Virus record (IMG/VR): IMGVR_UViG_3300015242_000020
Coordinates: 32,001 to 96,000 of that record
DNA: 64,000 nt
Reading direction: 5' to 3' (one strand)
Source of the DNA: a virus
Of the stretch, positions 2,826 through 26,413 are shown one piece after another (positions within the stretch are counted from its first letter, which is position 1; every line of letters starts with the position of its first letter). The notes below the pieces were generated by a model. It was given only the letters and a program-made list of their open reading frames with translations. It had not been told where the DNA came from and ran no database searches. Made by a program: the position numbers and the translations under genes.

Positions 2826-3455
2826 TCACTGCCAACCCGGTCCGGCCGTCTCGATCGGTGGAGTCTGACCCTCGATCCAGTCGTAGACCTTGATCGCCGA
2901 CAGCGGCACCAGCACCAGCGCCTCCGGGTCGACCCGAAAGAGCCCGGTGCAGTCCATCGAGACCGTCTGCTCGTAGACCACCTCATTGGTGCCCCAGGGG
3001 GTGCCTTGGCTCTCGGCCTTGCCGTTGACACCGAACCGGTCCCACTGCGGATCCACCGCGATCAGGTCATTGCCCAGGAGCTTCTGCCGGAACACCGCGC
3101 GCTCGGGGTTGAGCAGGCCGAAGGCCAGCACCTTGGTCATCTCATCGACCAGCCGGTCACGCTCCAGGGAGGTCAGCGCCACGCAGGTGAAGGAGATGGT
3201 GCCGCCGTAGCGAAAGACCGCCGTACGCCGAGGGTTGTCCTCCCCCTCCACCACGATCCACTCAGCATGGTTGATGCCGGCGGACTGGATCGGCTGGGTC
3301 GGAGTGAAGTCGATCCAGACCCCGGGATAGTTCGCCTGCTCCATCGGGTACTCGATCGACACGTCGACCCCGGTGAAGTCGAACTCCGGGTAGTCGCCTA
3401 CAAAGGTCGCCTGCAGGGACTCGACGAGCGCGGTCTTCAAGGAAGAGATAAACAT
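2826..3455 (-). CDS. Putative tail terminator/completion protein
   Basis: Position upstream of sheath, size and acidic alpha/beta pattern. Confidence 0.5.
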   Translation of the reverse strand: MFISSLKTALVESLQATFVGDYPEFDFTGVDVSIEYPMEQANYPGVWIDFTPTQPIQSAGINHAEWIVVEGEDNPRRTAVFRYGGTISFTCVALTSLERDRLVDEMTKVLAFGLLNPERAVFRQKLLGNDLIAVDPQWDRFGVNGKAESQGTPWGTNEVVYEQTVSMDCTGLFRVDPEALVLVPLSAIKVYDWIEGQTPPIETAGPGWQ

Positions 3456-4844: not shown

Positions 4845-5315
4845 TCAGCTTTCCAGCTCGATGTTGTACGACATATTGGCGGGAATTGTCGCCCCGGTGA
4901 CTACCCGGAGCACGGTCGTCACCGACGGAGGACAGTAAACCTCACGTCCGAGTGGCCACAGGAATGGCAGTGCACTGGCGTACCAATTCTTGATAACCCT
5001 CAAGGTTCCCGTGTTGATTACAGCCTCAGCGGTAAACGCCCCCACCGTTACCGTAGCCCCGGGGAAAGCAATGCTCTGACCTTCTCCATTTAGCCTGTCT
5101 GGGGTGAAAGCCGTACCGCCGGTCGCTGCGGTAAACGTGCTCGTGAACCGGACGATCTGGACCAGTGGCAGCGTAGTTTTGGAGACGTCGTCGATACCCA
5201 CGTCACAAACGACGATTCGACAGGCTTGCGTAGAGGATGTGACCACTTGGGCAAAAGCCTTGGTCGACGAGGCAGTCAGCGCGAATGAACCGGCTACCGA
5301 GTAGGTCTCAGCCAT
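4845..5315 (-). CDS. Putative virion structural protein
   Basis: T/A/V-rich beta protein in the structural block; good RBS. Confidence 0.5.
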   Translation of the reverse strand: MAETYSVAGSFALTASSTKAFAQVVTSSTQACRIVVCDVGIDDVSKTTLPLVQIVRFTSTFTAATGGTAFTPDRLNGEGQSIAFPGATVTVGAFTAEAVINTGTLRVIKNWYASALPFLWPLGREVYCPPSVTTVLRVVTGATIPANMSYNIELES

Positions 5316-20680: not shown

Positions 20681-20970
20681 CAGGGCATCCTTTGTCTCAG
20701 AGGTCGAGGGAGAAGCATAGAGCGCAGAGGCAAGACCGCCGGGGTAGTCCAGCGCCCCGGCGGTCGCCGTGCTTAGACCGTCCAGGTCAGGCCGTCACGT
20801 TTGGCCCATGTCGCGCCATCGCGCAACCAAGACGTACCTCTCGTATTTTTCACCATTACCTTCACCTCCCGGACCGTGATCGGAGGCATGTCACGCTCAG
20901 CCGGATTCGTCGGCGATGAGCCAGGTAACTGCCAGGGACCCCTCAATCACACTGAGTGGGGGATGATCTG

Positions 20971-20999
20971 ATGTTAAGGATTCTTGGAACCCATGTCAA
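20971..20999 (-). promoter_or_regulatory. SigA-like promoter with operator box
   Basis: TTGACA-N17-TAACAT; CCAAGAATCCTTAA overlaps spacer and -10. Confidence 0.8.
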
Positions 21000-21046
21000 G
21001 CAAAGGCCGGCGACCCTTTAGGACTGCCGGCCGGGGGGAAGATGTC

Positions 21047-21190
21047 GCAGGAGGGCTACACGGTTTACCGCAGCCCTCGGACTGTCCGGATGCGCTGTCC
21101 GGCCTTACCGAGTGGCTCGCTCTGCCGCTAGCCGGATTCGTGGTGCACCACTACTACCGACGCGCCTCGCTGAGACTGGCGCCCTCCCGC
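21047..21190 (-). ncRNA. Candidate structured ncRNA A
   Basis: Terminal stem GCGGGAGGGC/GCCCTCCTGC directly after tRNA-Asn, with internal hairpins. Confidence 0.5.
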
Positions 21191-21191
21191 G

Positions 21192-21264
21192 CTTCCCCAC
21201 CAGGACTCGAACCTGGAACCGTCGCCTTAACAGGGCGCTGCGCTGCCAGTTGCGCTATAGGGAA
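21192..21264 (-). tRNA. tRNA-Asn(GTT)
   Basis: Cloverleaf; loop CTGTTAA. Confidence 0.92.
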
Positions 21265-21308
21265 TTGGGTTTGAGAGGGGGCCCAGTTACCCGGGCCCCC
21301 TCTCACCG

Positions 21309-21383
21309 TAGCGGGTGAAGGATTTGAACCTTCGACCTTTGGGATATGAGCCCAACGAGCTGACCGAGCTGCTCTAACCCGCC
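21309..21383 (-). tRNA. tRNA-Met(CAT), initiator-like
   Basis: Loop CTCATAT; GGG/CCC anticodon stem; G1-U72. Confidence 0.9.
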
Positions 21384-21402
21384 ATGTCCTTGCATCGTAC
21401 AG

Positions 21403-21478
21403 TCCGGGGAGCAGGATTTGAACCTGCGCATCGCCTGTTTATAAGACAGGAGCCTTACCCCGACTTGGCCATCCCCGG
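21403..21478 (-). tRNA. tRNA-Ile(TAT)
   Basis: CCTGT-CTTATAA-ACAGG. Confidence 0.88.
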
Positions 21479-21490
21479 CAGGGATGATCG

Positions 21491-21565
21491 TCCCGGAGGC
21501 TGGATTTGAACCAGCGACACCATCCGTATCAGGGATGCGCTCTACCCAAGCTGAGCTACTCCGGA
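21491..21565 (-). tRNA. tRNA-Ile(GAT)
   Basis: CATCC-CTGATAC-GGATG. Confidence 0.92.
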
Positions 21566-21649
21566 TCGGCTCCGGGAGAGTCATCCTCCCGAAGGTCATG
21601 CTCTAAGGCCCCTTACCCGGATGACCGGAGCTGCAGCGCAGGGCACTTG

Positions 21650-21722
21650 TCGACGTGGCGTGACTCGAACACGCATACCTGCTGGGTGTAAACCAGTTGC
21701 TCGCCAGTTGAGCTACACGTCG
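21650..21722 (-). tRNA. tRNA-Val(TAC)
   Basis: Loop TTTACAC. Confidence 0.88.
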
Positions 21723-21813
21723 CTGGCATCGGGCCAACGCCACTGCTGGCAAGCAGTGCCCCGGGGAAAGGAAGGGGGATGCCGCCCCAGACCTCCGCGT
21801 TGGACCCTCCGCG

Positions 21814-21888
21814 CCGACCCCCTCGGCATCGAACCGAGAACCCCCGGTACTTCACACCGGTGCTACTACCCGACTGAGCTTGAGGCCG
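21814..21888 (-). tRNA. tRNA-Phe(GAA), atypical
   Basis: CCGGT-GTGAAGT-ACCGG; G at position 32. Confidence 0.8.
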
Positions 21889-22044
21889 TTGCCCTCGGCC
21901 TTCTCGCAGAGAGTTGGCCGAGGTCGTGCTAGTCCCTTCACCGGCTGACAGTTGAGGCTCGTGGTGAGCCCGGATGCCAGTCCGTCCTGCGACGGGTCTG
22001 CAAGAAACCTTAGACGACCGAGTAGTCGTCGCGCAAGTCTTGCG

Positions 22045-22117
22045 AGCAGGTGACGGGATTCGAACCCGCAACAGCGACCTTGGAAGGGTCGTACACGTCC
22101 AGTTGTGATTCACCTGC
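22045..22117 (-). tRNA. tRNA-Gly(TCC)
   Basis: CGACC-CTTCCAA-GGTCG; U73. Confidence 0.9.
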
Positions 22118-22122
22118 ATGGA

Positions 22123-22239
22123 GTACGCCCCTGGCTATCCTCGCGAGATGGACGTCAGCGGAGACTGAAAAGCCTAGTAAACACCGGAATCTCTCCGGCT
22201 TACTCTTCGGGCCCCGTACGGCCATAGCCAGGGACGTAC
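22123..22239 (-). ncRNA. Candidate structured ncRNA E
   Basis: 16-bp terminal stem GTACGTCCCTGGCTAT/ATAGCCAGGGGCGTAC filling the His-Gly spacer. Confidence 0.6.
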
Positions 22240-22243
22240 CTCG

Positions 22244-22316
22244 GGTGACGGACGGGGCTCGAACCCGCAGCCTCCGGATTCACAATCCGGCGTCCTACCA
22301 ATCGGACTTCCGTCAC
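22244..22316 (-). tRNA. tRNA-His(GTG)
   Basis: Loop TTGTGAA; C73; no encoded G-1. Confidence 0.9.
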
Positions 22317-22318
22317 AG

Positions 22319-22391
22319 CACGAGCGCGAGGAGTCGAACCTCGATTATCCGGTTTTGGAGACCGGTGTGTTCCCAGTTACACCACGCCCGC
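22319..22391 (-). tRNA. tRNA-Trp(CCA)
   Basis: Loop CTCCAAA. Confidence 0.88.
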
Positions 22392-22513
22392 AGAGATACC
22401 TCGGGGATGGTGTCGATGCCATCGGTTCATCATGCGGGCGCTCCTCTCTTAGGATCGTGCTGTGCGGTTCCAGGAACCCACCGTAGCAGCAGAATCCCTG
22501 GAGCCGCCAGCGT

Positions 22514-23011
22514 TTAGTTGCCCTTCCATCGCTGTCCATGGACGATCCTGTGAATTTGCGGTCGACCAACACCAAATCGATCCGAGAGATCGCACTGGCG
22601 TTGACCATCAGCGAACAGACTGCGGATCTCGACCACCTGATTCCACGTGAGCTTGGCCTCATGATGTTGTTCGCCAGGACGACCGCGTTTCCGATCGCGA
22701 CCACGCTCGATCATGTCTCGGATATTGTCCGCCTGCGTTCCTCCGAGCCAATGAGCGGGATTCTGGCACGGAGGCACGTCACAAGTGTGACGCACTACCC
22801 GAGGAGGCATCATGTCGTACTCCAGTAGCCATCCTGCTCGGTGCGCGGTCCAGATCAAGTGCTTGCCTGTGTCGTCGTTGCCGACATAGATCGAGCCGTG
22901 GCCGAATGGGTGCGTGGCCGCCGTCCATAACCAGCAATCATCAGGACCACGGCGCACGTACTTCTCTTCGTACCTTTCTCGCAATGTGAGGCTGACTTGC
23001 ACCCTATGCAC
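22514..23011 (-). CDS. HNH homing endonuclease with C-terminal HTH
   Basis: CWLW...AHR...VVRHTCDVPPCQNPAHW.GGTQADN; GEQHHEAKLT. Confidence 0.88.
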   Translation of the reverse strand: MHRVQVSLTLRERYEEKYVRRGPDDCWLWTAATHPFGHGSIYVGNDDTGKHLIWTAHRAGWLLEYDMMPPRVVRHTCDVPPCQNPAHWLGGTQADNIRDMIERGRDRKRGRPGEQHHEAKLTWNQVVEIRSLFADGQRQCDLSDRFGVGRPQIHRIVHGQRWKGN

Positions 23012-24194
23012 CCTTTACGTTCAGAAATTGCCGCAGCTCGTGCCGGATCTCGACCATGTCCGCCGCATCCGCCATCACGGTGTCGATCGGCTTGTACGCG
23101 TCCGGGTGCTCATCCAGGAATGCATCGGACTCACCCCAGACCACGCCGGCCGCCGCCATCTTGGCGTTCAGGTCCTCCCGGGTAAACAGCGACTTGGCCG
23201 CCGACCGGGAGTGTGCCCGACCAGCACCATGTGGAGCGGAGTTCAGCGAGTCGCTGTTGCCCTTACCGATGACCACGTAGCTCCTGGTACCCATCGAGCC
23301 CGGAATGAGCCCAGCGACGCCCTCAGCCGCGTTGATGGCGCCCTTGCGGGATACCCACACCGGCTTGCCGCCCCAGACCTCGGCCACGGTGTAGTTGTGG
23401 TGGCAGGAGATCTCCTCCAGTCGCTGCACCGACTTGCCCGAGTCGGTCCAGACGCCCAGGCAGTCCAGCACCCGGTCCATCATCTCGGCTCGGTTCAGCC
23501 GCGCCCACAGCTGCGCCCAGTTCAGCGCCTCCATGTACCGGACGAACCCCGGTGTGCCCTCCTCCAGGTAGGCCAGGTCCTTGTTCGGCAGCGGAGTCTT
23601 GTCGTGCTCGCACTGGGCCTTGGCGATCTTGATGTGCTGCTGGGCCAGTTTGTTGCCCACGCCTCGGGATCCGGAGTGCAGGAAGGCCCAGACCCGGTCC
23701 TCTTCGTCGTAGGACAGCTCGATGAAGTGGTTTCCGGAGCCCAGCGAGCCCAGCTGTGCTCGCCAGTCCACGCCGGTGTTGTCTGCCTGCTCGACACTCC
23801 AGGTCAGCTCCAGCTCGAAAATCCGGCGCTTGGCCGTGGTCGAAATGGTCTGGTTGCGGGCGCCGGCCGAGAGCGGTACCGCCGAGGCGATCGAGCGATG
23901 CAGGTCCCGCAGGCTCTTCCCGTCCTGCACCAGATAATCAATGGTTGTCTTGGTGTACGGGGTGAGCACTGCATCCATTCCGCAGCCAATATCCACTCCG
24001 ACCGCCGAGGGCATGATCGCCTGGTAGGTAGGAATGACCGAGCCGACCGTGGCGCCCAGGCCGAGATGGGCATCCGGCATCAATGCCAGGTGCGGATGGA
24101 TGAACGGCATGCTGGCGGTCTCATACGCCTGAGCCAGGGTCTTGGGATCCAGGATCGATGCGTAGTTGACCAGCTTGTCGGTGAGGCGCTCCAC
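23004..24194 (-). CDS. rtcB: RtcB RNA ligase
   Basis: LMPDAHLG, GVDIGCGM, GSLGSGNHFIE, LHSGSRG, HHNY, PGSMG, HGAGR, DEHPDAYK. Confidence 0.97.
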   Translation of the reverse strand: MERLTDKLVNYASILDPKTLAQAYETASMPFIHPHLALMPDAHLGLGATVGSVIPTYQAIMPSAVGVDIGCGMDAVLTPYTKTTIDYLVQDGKSLRDLHRSIASAVPLSAGARNQTISTTAKRRIFELELTWSVEQADNTGVDWRAQLGSLGSGNHFIELSYDEEDRVWAFLHSGSRGVGNKLAQQHIKIAKAQCEHDKTPLPNKDLAYLEEGTPGFVRYMEALNWAQLWARLNRAEMMDRVLDCLGVWTDSGKSVQRLEEISCHHNYTVAEVWGGKPVWVSRKGAINAAEGVAGLIPGSMGTRSYVVIGKGNSDSLNSAPHGAGRAHSRSAAKSLFTREDLNAKMAAAGVVWGESDAFLDEHPDAYKPIDTVMADAADMVEIRHELRQFLNVKGA

Positions 24195-24237
24195 GGTGGG
24201 ACTCCTTGGGGTCGTCAGGGGATATTTCTATCTTGCG

Positions 24238-24322
24238 CGGAGAGCGAAGGATTCGCACCCTCGTCGGGTTACCCCGAGCCTCCGGATTCCAACCGGGCAC
24301 ATTGCTGCTCTGTCAGCTCTCC
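24238..24322 (-). tRNA. tRNA-Ser(GGA)
   Basis: Loop TTGGAAT; long variable arm; atypical T-loop TGCGAAT. Confidence 0.8.
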
Positions 24323-24323
24323 A

Positions 24324-24412
24324 TGGCGGAAGATGCACGACTTGAACGTGCGCCGGGTCTCCCCGGGCCTCGGTTTAGCAAACCGGCGCCTTGCCAACTC
24401 AGCCAATCTTCC
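24324..24412 (-). tRNA. tRNA-Ser(GCT)
   Basis: Loop TTGCTAA; long variable arm; encoded CCA. Confidence 0.88.
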
Positions 24413-24422
24413 ATGATCATCG

Positions 24423-24507
24423 AAGAGGGTAACGGAGTCGAACCGTCGGGACGCACTGCCCGGTCTGGGTTTCGAAGCCAGTCGCCTACCACTAAGCACT
24501 ACCCTCC
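24423..24507 (-). tRNA. tRNA-Ser(CGA), possible 8/4 cloverleaf
   Basis: Loop TTCGAAA; GGAGGGTA/TACCCTCT acceptor; long variable arm. Confidence 0.7.
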
Positions 24508-24517
24508 ATACATTGCG

Positions 24518-24590
24518 CATCTCCGCCTGGATTCGAACCAAGACTGTCCGCGTCCAAAGCGCGGCGGGCTGCCGATTACCCCACGGAGAT
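24518..24590 (-). tRNA. tRNA-Gln(TTG)
   Basis: CCGCG-CTTTGGA-CGCGG. Confidence 0.9.
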
Positions 24591-24601
24591 TTACTGACGA
24601 G

Positions 24602-24673
24602 CACCGGTATCTGGACTCGAACCAAAACGACCTGGCTCAGAACCAGGCAGGCTGCCAATTACCTCATACCGAT
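24602..24673 (-). tRNA. tRNA-Gln(CTG)
   Basis: CCTGG-TTCTGAG-CCAGG. Confidence 0.88.
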
Positions 24674-24682
24674 CTGACCTCG

Positions 24683-24755
24683 CGCGCTGCACCCGATTCG
24701 AACAGGTGACCCCTGCCTTCGGAGGGCAGTGCTCTATCCACTGAGCTAGCAGCGC
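24683..24755 (-). tRNA. tRNA-Arg(CCG)
   Basis: CTGCC-CTCCGAA-GGCAG. Confidence 0.9.
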
Positions 24756-24756
24756 T

Positions 24757-24833
24757 TGGTTTCCCAGAGAGGATTCGAACCTCCGACTTCTGCATCCGTA
24801 GTGCAGCGCTCTAATCCACTGAGCTACTGGGAA
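24757..24833 (-). tRNA. tRNA-Arg(ACG)
   Basis: CTGCA-CTACGGA-TGCAG; encoded CCA. Confidence 0.92.
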
Positions 24834-24834
24834 A

Positions 24835-24910
24835 TGGTGCCTCCGACAGGATTCGAACCTGCATACCATCGGGGTAGGGGCCCGGCGCTCATCCGTTGAG
24901 CTACGAAGGC
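24835..24910 (-). tRNA. tRNA-Arg(CCT)
   Basis: Loop CCCCTAC (C33); encoded CCA. Confidence 0.82.
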
Positions 24911-24993
24911 TTGGCTCCCATGGACTTATTTGTGAGCCTGGGAGCTTCGAAGCCACAGAATGAGACGGTGATCAGGCGCCCCTATCTATGCTG

Positions 24994-25065
24994 CGATCCT
25001 GACGGGAATTGAACCCGCACAATCCACCGTGACAGGGTGGCGCTCTACCGTTAAGCCACAGGATC
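24994..25065 (-). tRNA. tRNA-Asp(GTC)
   Basis: CCACC-CTGTCAC-GGTGG. Confidence 0.92.
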
Positions 25066-25113
25066 TTAGTGTCCTTCCGAGAAAGCCCGTACATGGAGAA
25101 CTCGGAAGGAACG

Positions 25114-25186
25114 TCCGCCCCGAGGGACTCGAACCCTCGACCCACCGAGTAAGAGTCGGTTGTCTCTGCCGCTGAGCTAGAGGCGG
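25114..25186 (-). tRNA. tRNA-Lys(CTT)
   Basis: ACCGA-CTCTTAC-TCGGT. Confidence 0.9.
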
Positions 25187-25191
25187 TTATT

Positions 25192-25275
25192 GACGGGGGA
25201 TTGGGATGTACTGGGAATCGAACCCAGCACCGAAGGGCCTCTCCGGCCGTATCCACACGTAATCCCACCCCCGTC
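25192..25275 (-). ncRNA. tRNA-like RNA with perfect T-arm, stunted D/anticodon region and extended acceptor helix
   Basis: CTGGG-TTCGATT-CCCAG; GACGGGGG-TGGGAT pairs with ATCCCA-ATCCCCCGTC. Confidence 0.55.
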
Positions 25276-25322
25276 GGGGTGCCGGTTTCTCATCCGGCTC
25301 TGCGGCCGTACGAACCGCATTG

Positions 25323-25395
25323 TGGAGATGACAGGCTTCGAACCCGCGACATCCTGGTTGCAGGCCAGGCGCTCTACCAACTGAGCTACATCCCC
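25323..25395 (-). tRNA. tRNA-Ala(TGC)
   Basis: G3-U70; loop CCTGCAA (C33). Confidence 0.9.
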
Positions 25396-25407
25396 TTGAT
25401 CTAAACG

Positions 25408-25482
25408 TCCGCCCCCTCGGATTCGAACCGAGACTCTGACGTGGTAAAAGCACGCGGTTTTGGCCAATTAAACTAGAGGCGG
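25408..25482 (-). tRNA. tRNA-Lys(TTT)
   Basis: Loop CTTTTAC. Confidence 0.87.
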
Positions 25483-25486
25483 TTAT

Positions 25487-25579
25487 AGCCCCAACCCGGC
25501 GCAAGGTCACCATTATGGATCGGTCGGTTACGTGATCCGCCTCGCTATTCGCGGTCCGACAACCGTCCGGGTTGGGGTA
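25487..25579 (-). ncRNA. Candidate structured ncRNA G
   Basis: Terminal stem CCCCAACCCGG/CCGGGTTGGGG filling the Glu-Lys spacer. Confidence 0.55.
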
Positions 25580-25581
25580 TG

Positions 25582-25653
25582 CAGTCCCGGTGGGAATCGA
25601 ACCCACACCCTCTGATTGAGAATCAGGAATCCAGACCACTAGACGACGGGACC
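25582..25653 (-). tRNA. tRNA-Glu(CTC)
   Basis: Loop TTCTCAA. Confidence 0.9.
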
Positions 25654-25692
25654 AAAAGTATTGAGTTTTCAAAGGCCAGATGTAACTGTGCG

Positions 25693-25766
25693 TACCGCAG
25701 GTGAGAGTCGAACTCACATCAACCTGATCCTAAATCAGGCGCCTCGCCGGTTTGGGCTACTGCGGC
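25693..25766 (-). tRNA. tRNA-Leu(TAG), short variable loop
   Basis: CCTGA-TTTAGGA-TCAGG; A73. Confidence 0.88.
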
Positions 25767-25782
25767 ATATTCAGTTGTGACG

Positions 25783-25856
25783 TGCCCCCGGAGTGATTCG
25801 AACACTCACCACCTGGGATTTGACTCCAGTGCATCTGCCAATTGTGCTACGGAGGC
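25783..25856 (-). tRNA. tRNA-Leu(CAA), short variable loop
   Basis: Loop GTCAAAT; A73. Confidence 0.8.
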
Positions 25857-25861
25857 GTACC

Positions 25862-25949
25862 TGGTGCGTAGGGGAGGAATCGAACCTCCGCCGTCCAGAG
25901 GATCCGGCTTTACAGGCCGGCGCAGCCAACCAACAGCTACCTCCTACGC
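25862..25949 (-). tRNA. tRNA-Tyr(GTA)
   Basis: CCGGC-CTGTAAA-GCCGG; long variable arm; encoded CCA. Confidence 0.9.
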
Positions 25950-25953
25950 GCGG

Positions 25954-26029
25954 GGCCGGTGACAGGAATTGAACCTGCGTTCGCCTGATTACTAAACAGG
26001 TGCTGTGAGCCAACGTCAGCTACACCGGC
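25954..26029 (-). tRNA. tRNA-Thr(AGT)
   Basis: Loop TTAGTAA; GCCGGTG/CACCGGC acceptor. Confidence 0.85.
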
Positions 26030-26208
26030 CGGTCTGGGGAATCAGAGATATCGAGCCGTTGTGGCTCGCTGATCCTCATCGGCGCTGGAGGTTCGTTGAT
26101 CTCGCTGTCGGAGGGATTCCCGGGCACGCAGGGATGACCGCTTTCGCAGTCTCAGGCCGAGTCGTTTCGCTCGCATCGCGTGCCTCCTCTCCGTGGTCTT
26201 GTATGACC

Positions 26209-26238
26209 AGTGAAGCATCCCTAGAACCCGGGTGTCAA
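26209..26238 (-). promoter_or_regulatory. Probable tRNA-operon promoter with operator box
   Basis: TTGACA-N18-TTCACT (weak -10); CTAGGGATGCTTCA box. Confidence 0.55.
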
Positions 26239-26413
26239 CTGGTTTCCTCCTCCGGTATGCTCGCCGGCATCCCGTACTGAGTAGGCCGTGACTGGCCGAG
26301 GGGGCGCGGTGCAATGCGGGGTGTACTGCGTGAGACGACCTGCACCCGCTCGGTCGGCTGGTCAAGGCGCCTTGTCAGCGCTGTTTCCAGTCGGCCGGTC
26401 GGTCGGGCGGACT

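Follow-up and report, generated by a model that had tools for sequence, protein, structure and literature searches.

Orphan structured elements predicted in most of the long spacers of a tRNA array from a high-GC phage

Unexplained small RNAs in phage transfer RNA (tRNA) clusters have been known for fifty years, among them RNAC and RNAD of T4 (species 1 and 2), which are about 120-140 nucleotides (nt) in size. Here we describe elements of this kind in the tRNA array of an uncultured soil phage represented by IMG/VR record IMGVR_UViG_3300015242_000020. The stretch that was analyzed, called the window below, is 64,000 nt long and comprises bases 32001-96000 of this 135,564-base record (CheckV completeness, 93%). 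The array occupies positions 21191..26029 of the window on the minus strand, and most of its long spacers are predicted to fold into compact, self-contained structures. They constitute a new set of orphan non-tRNA structured RNAs in a phage tRNA cluster, the kind itself being already known.

RNAC and RNAD are small stable RNAs that arise from the T4 tRNA region, are transcribed together with the tRNAs and have a function described as unexplained (PMC3014915); both have been detected by Northern blotting (PMC9697503). Like them, the elements in the window are non-tRNA sequences that lie among tRNA genes on the same strand and are of the same size range. Unlike the two T4 RNAs, about eight different modules are present here, they are known from sequence alone, and the host of the phage is probably a high-GC actinobacterium. 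The likeness is one of position and size, as no T4 sequence was compared and Rfam gave no match. The Rfam motifs manA RNA, GOLLD and ROOL, which are often located beside phage tRNAs, are likewise structured non-tRNA RNAs in or next to phage tRNA clusters, and none of them matches the window.

Two other described systems resemble the locus in part. In Escherichia coli, external spacers of tRNA transcripts such as the 3' external transcribed spacer (3'ETS) of leuZ (Lalaouna et al. 2015) are reported to pair with small RNAs (sRNAs) and act as sponges (PMC7213987), so that a tRNA-processing by-product has its own function. By its position, the 144-nt trailer at 21047-21190, which follows tRNA-Asn, is also a 3'ETS. 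The E. coli sponge is described as acting through Hfq and known sRNAs, whereas no such partner is known for the trailer in the window. Actinobacteria are not known to possess Hfq. Theta ribozymes, which are minimal ribozymes of the hepatitis delta virus (HDV) type, adjoin the 3' ends of phage tRNAs without an encoded CCA and are reported mostly from gut phages of Bacteroidota (Kienbeck et al. 2024; PMC10879173). The window elements are similarly structured and start at the 3' end of CCA-less phage tRNAs, but no nested double pseudoknot with a catalytic C was detected in them: a descriptor that we wrote ourselves from the general HDV-like architecture (P1, P1.1, P2, P3 and a catalytic C in J4/2), rather than the published one, had 0 matches on the tRNA strand of 20900-26400. 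No Rfam ribozyme was found there at E <= 10.

ARAGORN identified 25 tRNA genes in the array, every one on the minus strand, running from 26029 down to 21191. Rfam at gathering score yielded 23 tRNA matches and no second family in the whole 64 kb. With a further, weak tRNA-Ser(CGA) counted, the array has 25 junctions; 14 of them are no longer than 18 nt, 10 measure 38-155 nt, and the remaining one, of 1845 nt, contains an RtcB gene and an HNH endonuclease open reading frame (ORF).

21191..26029, minus strand: tRNA array with 25 confident tRNAs and one weak tRNA-Ser(CGA), interrupted by RtcB and the HNH gene (ARAGORN, Rfam)
23004..24194, minus strand: RtcB RNA ligase gene within the array (Pfam PF01139, E 3e-105)
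22514..23011, minus strand: HNH homing-endonuclease-type ORF (PHROGs endonuclease/HNH families, best E 6e-23)

We folded 12 stretches on both strands, namely the 10 long spacers (38-155 nt), the 106 nt upstream of the array and the 144 nt downstream of it, and expressed the predicted stability of each as a z-score against 300 dinucleotide shuffles per stretch, with a cut-off of z <= -2.5. The background consisted of 110 random length-matched segments from the rest of the window. On the tRNA strand, 8 of the 12 stretches reached the cut-off, as opposed to 8 of the 110 background segments, whose mean z was -0.41 (binomial P 3e-7). The other four (26135-26030, 25691-25654, 21812-21723 and 21648-21566) had z values of -0.5 to -1.0. 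The eight significant elements and two of the unstructured spacers are as follows (dG, predicted folding free energy).

25483..25580, minus strand: 98-nt spacer between tRNA-Glu and tRNA-Lys(UUU), closed by an 11-bp CCCCAACCCGG/CCGGGUUGGGG stem (dG -42.5, z -2.9)
25187..25321, minus strand: 135-nt spacer between tRNA-Ala and tRNA-Lys(CUU), with two 5' hairpins and a 3' domain closed by 14 pairs (z -3.4)
25066..25112, minus strand: 47-nt spacer between tRNA-Lys(CUU) and tRNA-Asp, a single hairpin whose 12-pair stem begins at the first spacer base (z -4.5)
24911..24992, minus strand: 82-nt spacer between tRNA-Asp and tRNA-Arg(CCU), two hairpins, the weakest of the significant elements (z -2.5; plus strand, -0.85)
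22118..22242, minus strand: 125-nt spacer between tRNA-His and tRNA-Gly, an 18-pair closing helix around three small hairpins (dG -59.2, z -4.6)
21889..22043, minus strand: 155-nt spacer between tRNA-Gly and tRNA-Phe, a multi-domain fold in which two 5' hairpins are followed by a long, irregular central arm and then by a 3' hairpin of 8 bp (z -4.5)
21265..21307, minus strand: 43-nt spacer between tRNA-Met and tRNA-Asn, a near-perfect GC-rich hairpin of 17 pairs (dG -36.0, z -5.9)
21047..21190, minus strand: 144-nt 3' trailer behind tRNA-Asn, the last of the array, with end-to-end closure (z -3.0)
21723..21812, minus strand: 90-nt spacer between tRNA-Phe and tRNA-Val, C-rich, no significant structure (z -0.7)
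21566..21648, minus strand: 83-nt spacer between tRNA-Val and tRNA-Ile, no significant structure, nearly invariant in a related phage (z -0.5)

The folds fit closely between the tRNAs, with 0-3 nt left unpaired on the side of the upstream tRNA and 2-6 nt on that of the following tRNA. Closing helices were counted where they spanned at least 85% of the spacer. The longest, of 18 pairs in 22242-22118, was equaled in 1.3% of shuffles; those of 25112-25066 (12 pairs), the 3' domain of 25321-25187 (14 pairs), 25580-25483 (9 pairs) and 21190-21047 (10 pairs) were equaled in 4.7%, 4%, 7.7% and 13.7% of shuffles, respectively. The spacer at 22118-22242 is the best case of base-paired ends; on the plus strand its fold is weaker (dG -48.7, z -2.8). 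In seven of the eight significant elements the tRNA strand gave the lower z, the exception being 25580-25483, and each fold contains 1-5 G-U pairs. According to these folding models, the long gaps of the array are shown to be mostly filled by self-contained, strand-specific, RNA-level folds on the tRNA strand.

The initial annotation of this DNA had proposed that several spacers are almost entirely filled by elements with paired ends, that in two cases G-U pairs favor the tRNA strand and that the array carries structured non-tRNA RNAs. The second point is borne out by two G-U pairs in the closing helix of 22242-22118 and by the bias in z. The first holds for several of the eight significant stretches, and the other four have no significant structure. 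Three stretches had to be reassigned: 24413-24516 is probably a tRNA-Ser(CGA), 26030-26135 lies inside an ORF, and 25321-25187 is partly tRNA-like. The third is retained with the reservation that, among the spacers, one is probably a tRNA and one derives from a tRNA; the remaining folds are strand specific, and they occupy positions from which RNase P and a 3' endonuclease would be expected to excise them.

The weak tRNA and the partly tRNA-like spacer stand apart from the other elements.

24422..24507, minus strand: candidate tRNA-Ser(CGA), class II, filling the 104-nt 'spacer' 24413-24516 (found by ARAGORN at -ps85, absent at default settings)

This candidate forms a cloverleaf whose anticodon reads CGA, whose variable arm is long and whose T-loop is UUCGACU, and it scores 32.9 bits (E 0.0011; gathering, 47) with the Rfam tRNA-Sec model. 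However, its D-arm is weak, its anticodon stem contains a C-C mismatch and its T-stem has just 4 bp. A metagenomic locus with an RtcB 65% identical to that of the window (L060) likewise carries a Ser(CGA) tRNA upstream of RtcB.

In 25321-25187, the 3' domain measures 90 nt, and its 14-pair closing stem includes a small internal loop. It contains a canonical T-arm (CUGGG UUCGAUU CCCAG), and the adjoining helix could also represent a 7-pair acceptor stem containing one mismatch. The tRNA-like core at 25202-25271 was recognized by ARAGORN only at -ps70; it does not qualify as a four-arm tRNA, having neither a D-arm nor a 7-nt anticodon loop. Compared with 135 real tRNAs from the window and four other arrays, the element showed local similarity limited to the T-arm. 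Its Rfam scores are far under threshold (tmRNA, 18.5 bits; mascRNA, 17.1 bits; Deinococcus Y RNA, 14.5 bits), and the tmRNA and mascRNA models touch the T-arm.

Y RNAs deserve a separate comparison. YrlA RNAs occur in mycobacteriophages, and their defining features are given as a neighboring Ro60 (TROVE) gene, a GNCGAA(N)G motif near the 5' end, and T and D stem-loops (PMC4201824). Like YrlA and Deinococcus Yrn1, the 3' domain of 25187-25321 combines a tRNA-type T-arm with a long stem in which its two ends pair and which has a small internal loop. The Deinococcus Y RNA model (RF01053) aligns exactly to this outer stem and T-arm, yet scores 14.5 bits when 80 are needed at gathering. Unlike YrlA, the element has no GNCGAA in its 135 nt and no D-arm, and the phage has no Ro60/TROVE gene (PF05731 was unmatched in the 135.5-kb record, which is 93% complete). 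The YrlA model RF02553 had its best score, 23.3 bits, on real tRNAs and gave no score on 25187-25321. We file the element as a tRNA-derived or tRNA-mimicking module, not a Y RNA.

A sequencing-run index pointed to four soil-metagenome runs (X1 to X4) from three studies, X3 and X4 belonging to one study; none of the runs listed was of RNA. X1 may be the sample from which the record came. X2 carries identical pieces. In X3 and X4 there is a relative, represented by long contigs of 76,984 and 39,696 nt. Because 271 differences in this comparison are unlisted, the counts below are of listed changes, and they come from a single relative in a single study. The RtcB gene of the relative differs at 108 of 1227 positions (91% identity). 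Two blocks of the array are well kept, 21047-21299 with 6 differences and 1 gap and 21569-22040 with 23 differences and 7 gaps. Over the 376 nt of three conserved spacers, 5 changes are listed and 15 is the maximum, compared with 33 predicted from the RtcB rate (P 2e-4 at the upper bound), and their loops are also almost unchanged. In 22043-21889 the one listed change, where 13.4 would be expected at the RtcB rate, turns a G-C pair into G-U on the tRNA strand. Three are listed in 21190-21047: a G-C to G-U change, a break in a weak 4-bp helix and a loop change. The sole one in 21648-21566 is a 1-nt deletion in a loop.

Other parts of the same blocks are less well kept. The tRNA-Val(UAC) gene at 21649-21722 (minus strand) differs at 13 of 74 positions, with one deletion in addition. 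Three fully compensatory double changes are among these differences and no pair is lost, which provides a positive control. The divergence of this gene far exceeds that of RtcB (P 0.005 versus the RtcB rate) and of the spacers on either side, which could reflect fast tRNA evolution or gene replacement. In spacer 21812-21723 there are five substitutions, four disrupting predicted pairs and one (21723) at an unpaired base, as well as a 1-nt deletion, and 21307-21265 has a 1-nt deletion in its stem. Taken over 21047-21190, 21889-22043 and 21265-21307, two stem changes keep the pair, one breaks it and one is a deletion. Both pair-keeping changes in significant spacers are from G-C to G-U on the tRNA strand. 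For covariation, which the initial annotation had suggested as a check, the stem changes in this one relative are too few for significance.

Elsewhere, similarity to the relative starts and stops in blocks. Positions 21300-21568, with tRNA-Met and both tRNA-Ile genes, are replaced (269 nt by 261 other letters), and most of 22041-22313, comprising tRNA-Gly, most of the 125-nt spacer and tRNA-His, is unaligned at >=80%. The sole aligned piece there is 22205-22247, whose 43 nt are the 5' 38 nt of the 125-nt spacer and 5 nt of tRNA-His. About 400 extra nt are present in the relative between 25100 and 25538; nearby, the 3' 43 nt of 25483-25580 align, and 25066-25100 falls in an aligned piece, 24993-25100, with 3 differences overall. 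Judged from this block-wise pattern, recent exchange could mimic constraint. The window is a clear high-GC example of structured tRNA spacers, some of which are better kept in one relative than an RNA ligase gene and one tRNA.

The relative has no HNH ORF, the X3 and X4 contigs joining 22520 straight to 23011, a difference of 490 nt. So clean a presence/absence difference is as expected for a free-standing homing endonuclease. Outside the spacer set, a long hairpin at 22459-22511 (minus strand) lies just 3' of the HNH stop codon and, in the relative, just 3' of RtcB; three of its four stem changes keep pairing via G-U intermediates and one breaks it.

Our favored but tentative reading, to which we give a little less than an even chance, is that the modules are cis-acting insulating and processing elements that are released as stable by-products. 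The array would be one transcript, extending from upstream of tRNA-Thr to a terminator-like hairpin past the trailer, and promoter and terminator scans inside it gave nothing above shuffles.

21005..21032, minus strand: terminator-like hairpin by its fold (GGCCGGC...GCCGGCC then UUUGCUU), which would end the array transcript
20999-20971, minus strand: promoter-like site TTGACA-17-TAACAT from a promoter scan, past the terminator-like hairpin

The hairpin at 21265-21307 does not qualify as an intrinsic terminator: it has no U-tract, AAACCCAA comes next, and it was not among the terminator-scan calls.

On this transcript, host RNase P would cut at the 5' end of every tRNA. CCA is found near the 3' end in at most 5 of the 26 array tRNAs, and the phage record contains no PF01743 nucleotidyltransferase as a CCA-adding enzyme; 3' maturation therefore probably proceeds by endonucleolytic cutting and host CCA addition. 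An RNase Z-type cut after each discriminator base is assumed for the same reason. The modules would be released as hairpins with both ends buried in a helix, from which their stability would follow, and these closed hairpins would be stable by-products of the RNAC/RNAD kind. Their selected role would lie mainly in cis: the modules would sequester long GC-rich spacer RNA, preventing it from mispairing with neighboring tRNAs, and would leave just short single-stranded linkers at the cut sites. Two 'spacers' in this scheme would be tRNA-derived, the weak tRNA-Ser(CGA) and the T-arm/acceptor minihelix inside a long stem.

Insulation was examined in silico by computing how probable the cloverleaf pairs of the two flanking tRNAs are in the folding ensemble when the natural spacer, or one of 60 shuffled ones, lies between them. 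The natural spacer was better than at least 92% of the shuffles in six of nine cases (natural versus shuffled mean):

25580-25483: 0.53 versus 0.26 (0 of 60 shuffles as good)
22242-22118: 0.66 versus 0.35
22043-21889: 0.58 versus 0.42
25112-25066: 0.73 versus 0.43
21307-21265: 0.88 versus 0.67
25691-25654: 0.84 versus 0.65

The result favors the simpler role in cis, and the model shows that long GC-rich spacer RNA that does not fold on itself is predicted to disturb the tRNAs. Spacers 25321-25187, 24992-24911 and 21648-21566 did not pass.

Spacers of other actinophage-like arrays were folded in the same manner, within 40-200 nt for L095, L027 and L005 and 38-330 nt for L129, the array of the closest record found through a 1056-amino-acid (aa) protein (57% identity). 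Significant folds were obtained for 4 of 7 spacers in L095, 1 of 6 in L027, 0 of 10 in L005 and 4 of 7 in L129, and none of these spacers resembles those of the window in sequence. Structured spacers elsewhere with unrelated sequences fit replaceable modules. If the elements do act in cis, they exemplify how long polycistronic tRNA precursors are designed, a rule that would also be of use in building synthetic tRNA arrays.

Several observations weigh against cis insulation. The elements 25321-25187 and 24992-24911 have significant folds yet failed the insulation test, which is itself partly circular, since any stable self-fold insulates in silico. At 14 of the 25 junctions the tRNAs are separated by 18 nt or less without a hairpin; tRNAs are therefore processable without modules, and the long spacers need another reason. 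Spacer conservation in the relative, unless the blocks were recently exchanged, looks like constraint on sequence as well as structure and goes beyond the needs of a purely structural role. These short junctions and the sequence-level conservation keep alive the explanation considered next, and present evidence does not decide between action in cis and in trans.

According to that explanation, which is possible but which we consider rather unlikely, the modules are RNA genes and the array is their production line: tRNA-processing enzymes would free stable RNAs with a function in trans, be it as sponges, decoys or regulators. The module with the T-arm (25187-25321) would be a tRNA mimic. It would account for spacer sequence being kept beyond RtcB (5 listed changes, 15 at most, versus 33 expected per 376 nt) while the intervening tRNA-Val changed at 13 sites, and for both pair-keeping stem changes in significant spacers being G-C to G-U on the tRNA strand. 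Closed ends would also be expected to resist exonucleases, and there are precedents in RNAC/RNAD of T4 and in the E. coli tRNA external spacers reported to pair with sRNAs. What it lacks is a family, a motif or a partner. The modules have no motif in common, not even two of them, and no sponge or decoy signature was found. They are absent from the more distant arrays compared; the conservation comes from one relative in one study and could be explained by mosaic exchange; and the substitutions are too few to show covariation.

The comparisons behind these negatives were as follows. Rfam, proposed as a check by the initial annotation, assigned no spacer to a family at gathering score, and at E <= 10 it returned only tRNA-related or far sub-threshold matches. 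Three exact-pattern scans of viral contigs with spacer strings gave 0 matches. No spacer was shared with RtcB relatives in viral contigs (30 loci, at most 62% identity) or in metagenome contigs (80 of 378 kept, at most 67% identity). With the neighboring 416-aa protein as query, one 2.3-kb contig was found. The 1056-aa protein led to 7 loci at no more than 57% identity, with no tRNAs in the flanks examined; one record reached in this way (G001) has an array elsewhere, and its spacers are unrelated.

In a more specific form, which we regard as unlikely, lineage-specific, sequence-constrained phage RNAs are cut out by the tRNA-processing enzymes and act in trans during infection, the best candidates being 21889-22043, 21047-21190 and 25187-25321. 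Such RNAs would serve, for instance, as tRNA-mimic decoys against host tRNA-targeting defenses or as partners of the RtcB encoded in the array. A trans reading of the elements is plausible but unproven; if true, tRNA arrays would be a place where phages generally hide regulatory or decoy RNAs.

It is improbable that the elements are evolutionary debris, that is, decayed tRNA genes or leftovers of insertions and deletions whose stems are inherited or accidental and have no function. One 'spacer' is indeed a degenerate-looking tRNA-Ser(CGA), and another has a perfect T-arm and an acceptor-like helix; T-arm-like hairpins recur in spacers of L129 and L095, and the relative shows whole-block differences (269 nt replaced by 261 nt; about 400 extra nt in 25100-25538). 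However, a 75-nt cloverleaf does not decay into elements 98-155 nt long with 11-18 pairs in their closing helices, and apart from the two tRNA-derived cases the spacers gave no score with a tRNA model even at E 10. Debris would not be expected to show 97-99% conservation while RtcB shows 91%, nor a large excess of structure over the genome background.

Elements that function at the DNA level, either small mobile palindromes resembling miniature inverted-repeat transposable elements (MITEs) or repetitive extragenic palindromes (REPs), or recombination sites at cassette borders, are very improbable. Their ends are inverted repeats, block edges in the relative lie near tRNA/spacer borders, and the adjacent HNH gene is cleanly present or absent. 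A MITE- or REP-type repeat is nevertheless rejected, as each spacer matches itself alone in the window and in the whole 135.5-kb genome. The occurrence of G-U pairs and the bias of z toward the tRNA strand also argue for RNA over DNA, and the G-C to G-U changes of the relative would be A-C mismatches on the opposite strand. Chance folding of GC-rich intergenic DNA, the least credible explanation, could produce single end-to-end closures, which occur in 1-14% of shuffles, and 4 of the 12 stretches are unremarkable, but 8 of 12 versus 8 of 110 from the same genome (P 3e-7) already makes it very unlikely.

The stretch upstream of the first tRNA was rejected as a structured RNA, its z not being significant and the stretch (26030-26135) lying inside a short ORF.

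26042-26176, minus strand: 44-codon arginine-rich ORF (MRAKRLGLRLRKRSS...) with a strong GGAGAGGAGG ribosome-binding site, stopping 12 nt before the first tRNA (Thr)

Read within a 107-aa frame, this ORF matched no family. Nine ORFs overlap spacers; none has a match in PHROGs or Pfam, and these ORFs run through tRNA genes.

The phage has a GC content of about 63% in the window. Its proteins are only distantly related to those of cluster-C-type mycobacteriophages, with about 50% identity across part of the 1056-aa protein. Among 50,697 phage records searched with megablast and blastn there was no cultured close relative, and tRNAs were the sole matches. A 22-nt exact match of 21956-21977, within the 155-nt spacer, to two contigs of one soil metagenome-assembled genome (MAG) lineage (L130 and L131) lies in a protein-coding gene; we judge it to be due to chance, as it has no extension and no tRNAs nearby.

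Among the other arrays, L129 has a 136-nt spacer between tRNA-Glu and tRNA-His with two T-arm-like hairpins (2077-2212) and a 226-nt spacer between tRNA-Thr and tRNA-Asp with a z of -8.1 (3004-3229). In L095, an unrelated metagenomic phage-like contig with 21 tRNAs, two Rfam matches stand out (1316-1538 and 2171-2206). The spacer between tRNA-Trp and tRNA-Pro is filled by a manA-like RNA (38.4 bits, E 6.5e-7, under the gathering score of 55.2), and about 480 nt downstream of tRNA-Pro there is an abiF RNA match that, at 39.9 bits, exceeds its gathering score of 37.

Beyond the array and the window, ARAGORN found two more tRNAs in the record, a Cys-GCA (record positions 5062-5132) and a second Ser-GGA (105312-105402). 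The window also encodes a 636-aa protein (41664-43574, minus strand) with a 2'-5' RNA ligase/2H-type domain (Pfam E 2e-8; PHROGs 'RNA ligase', E 1e-12). Together with the RtcB in the array, this protein suggests an RNA-repair theme, which would fit the mending of tRNAs cleaved by host defense nucleases.

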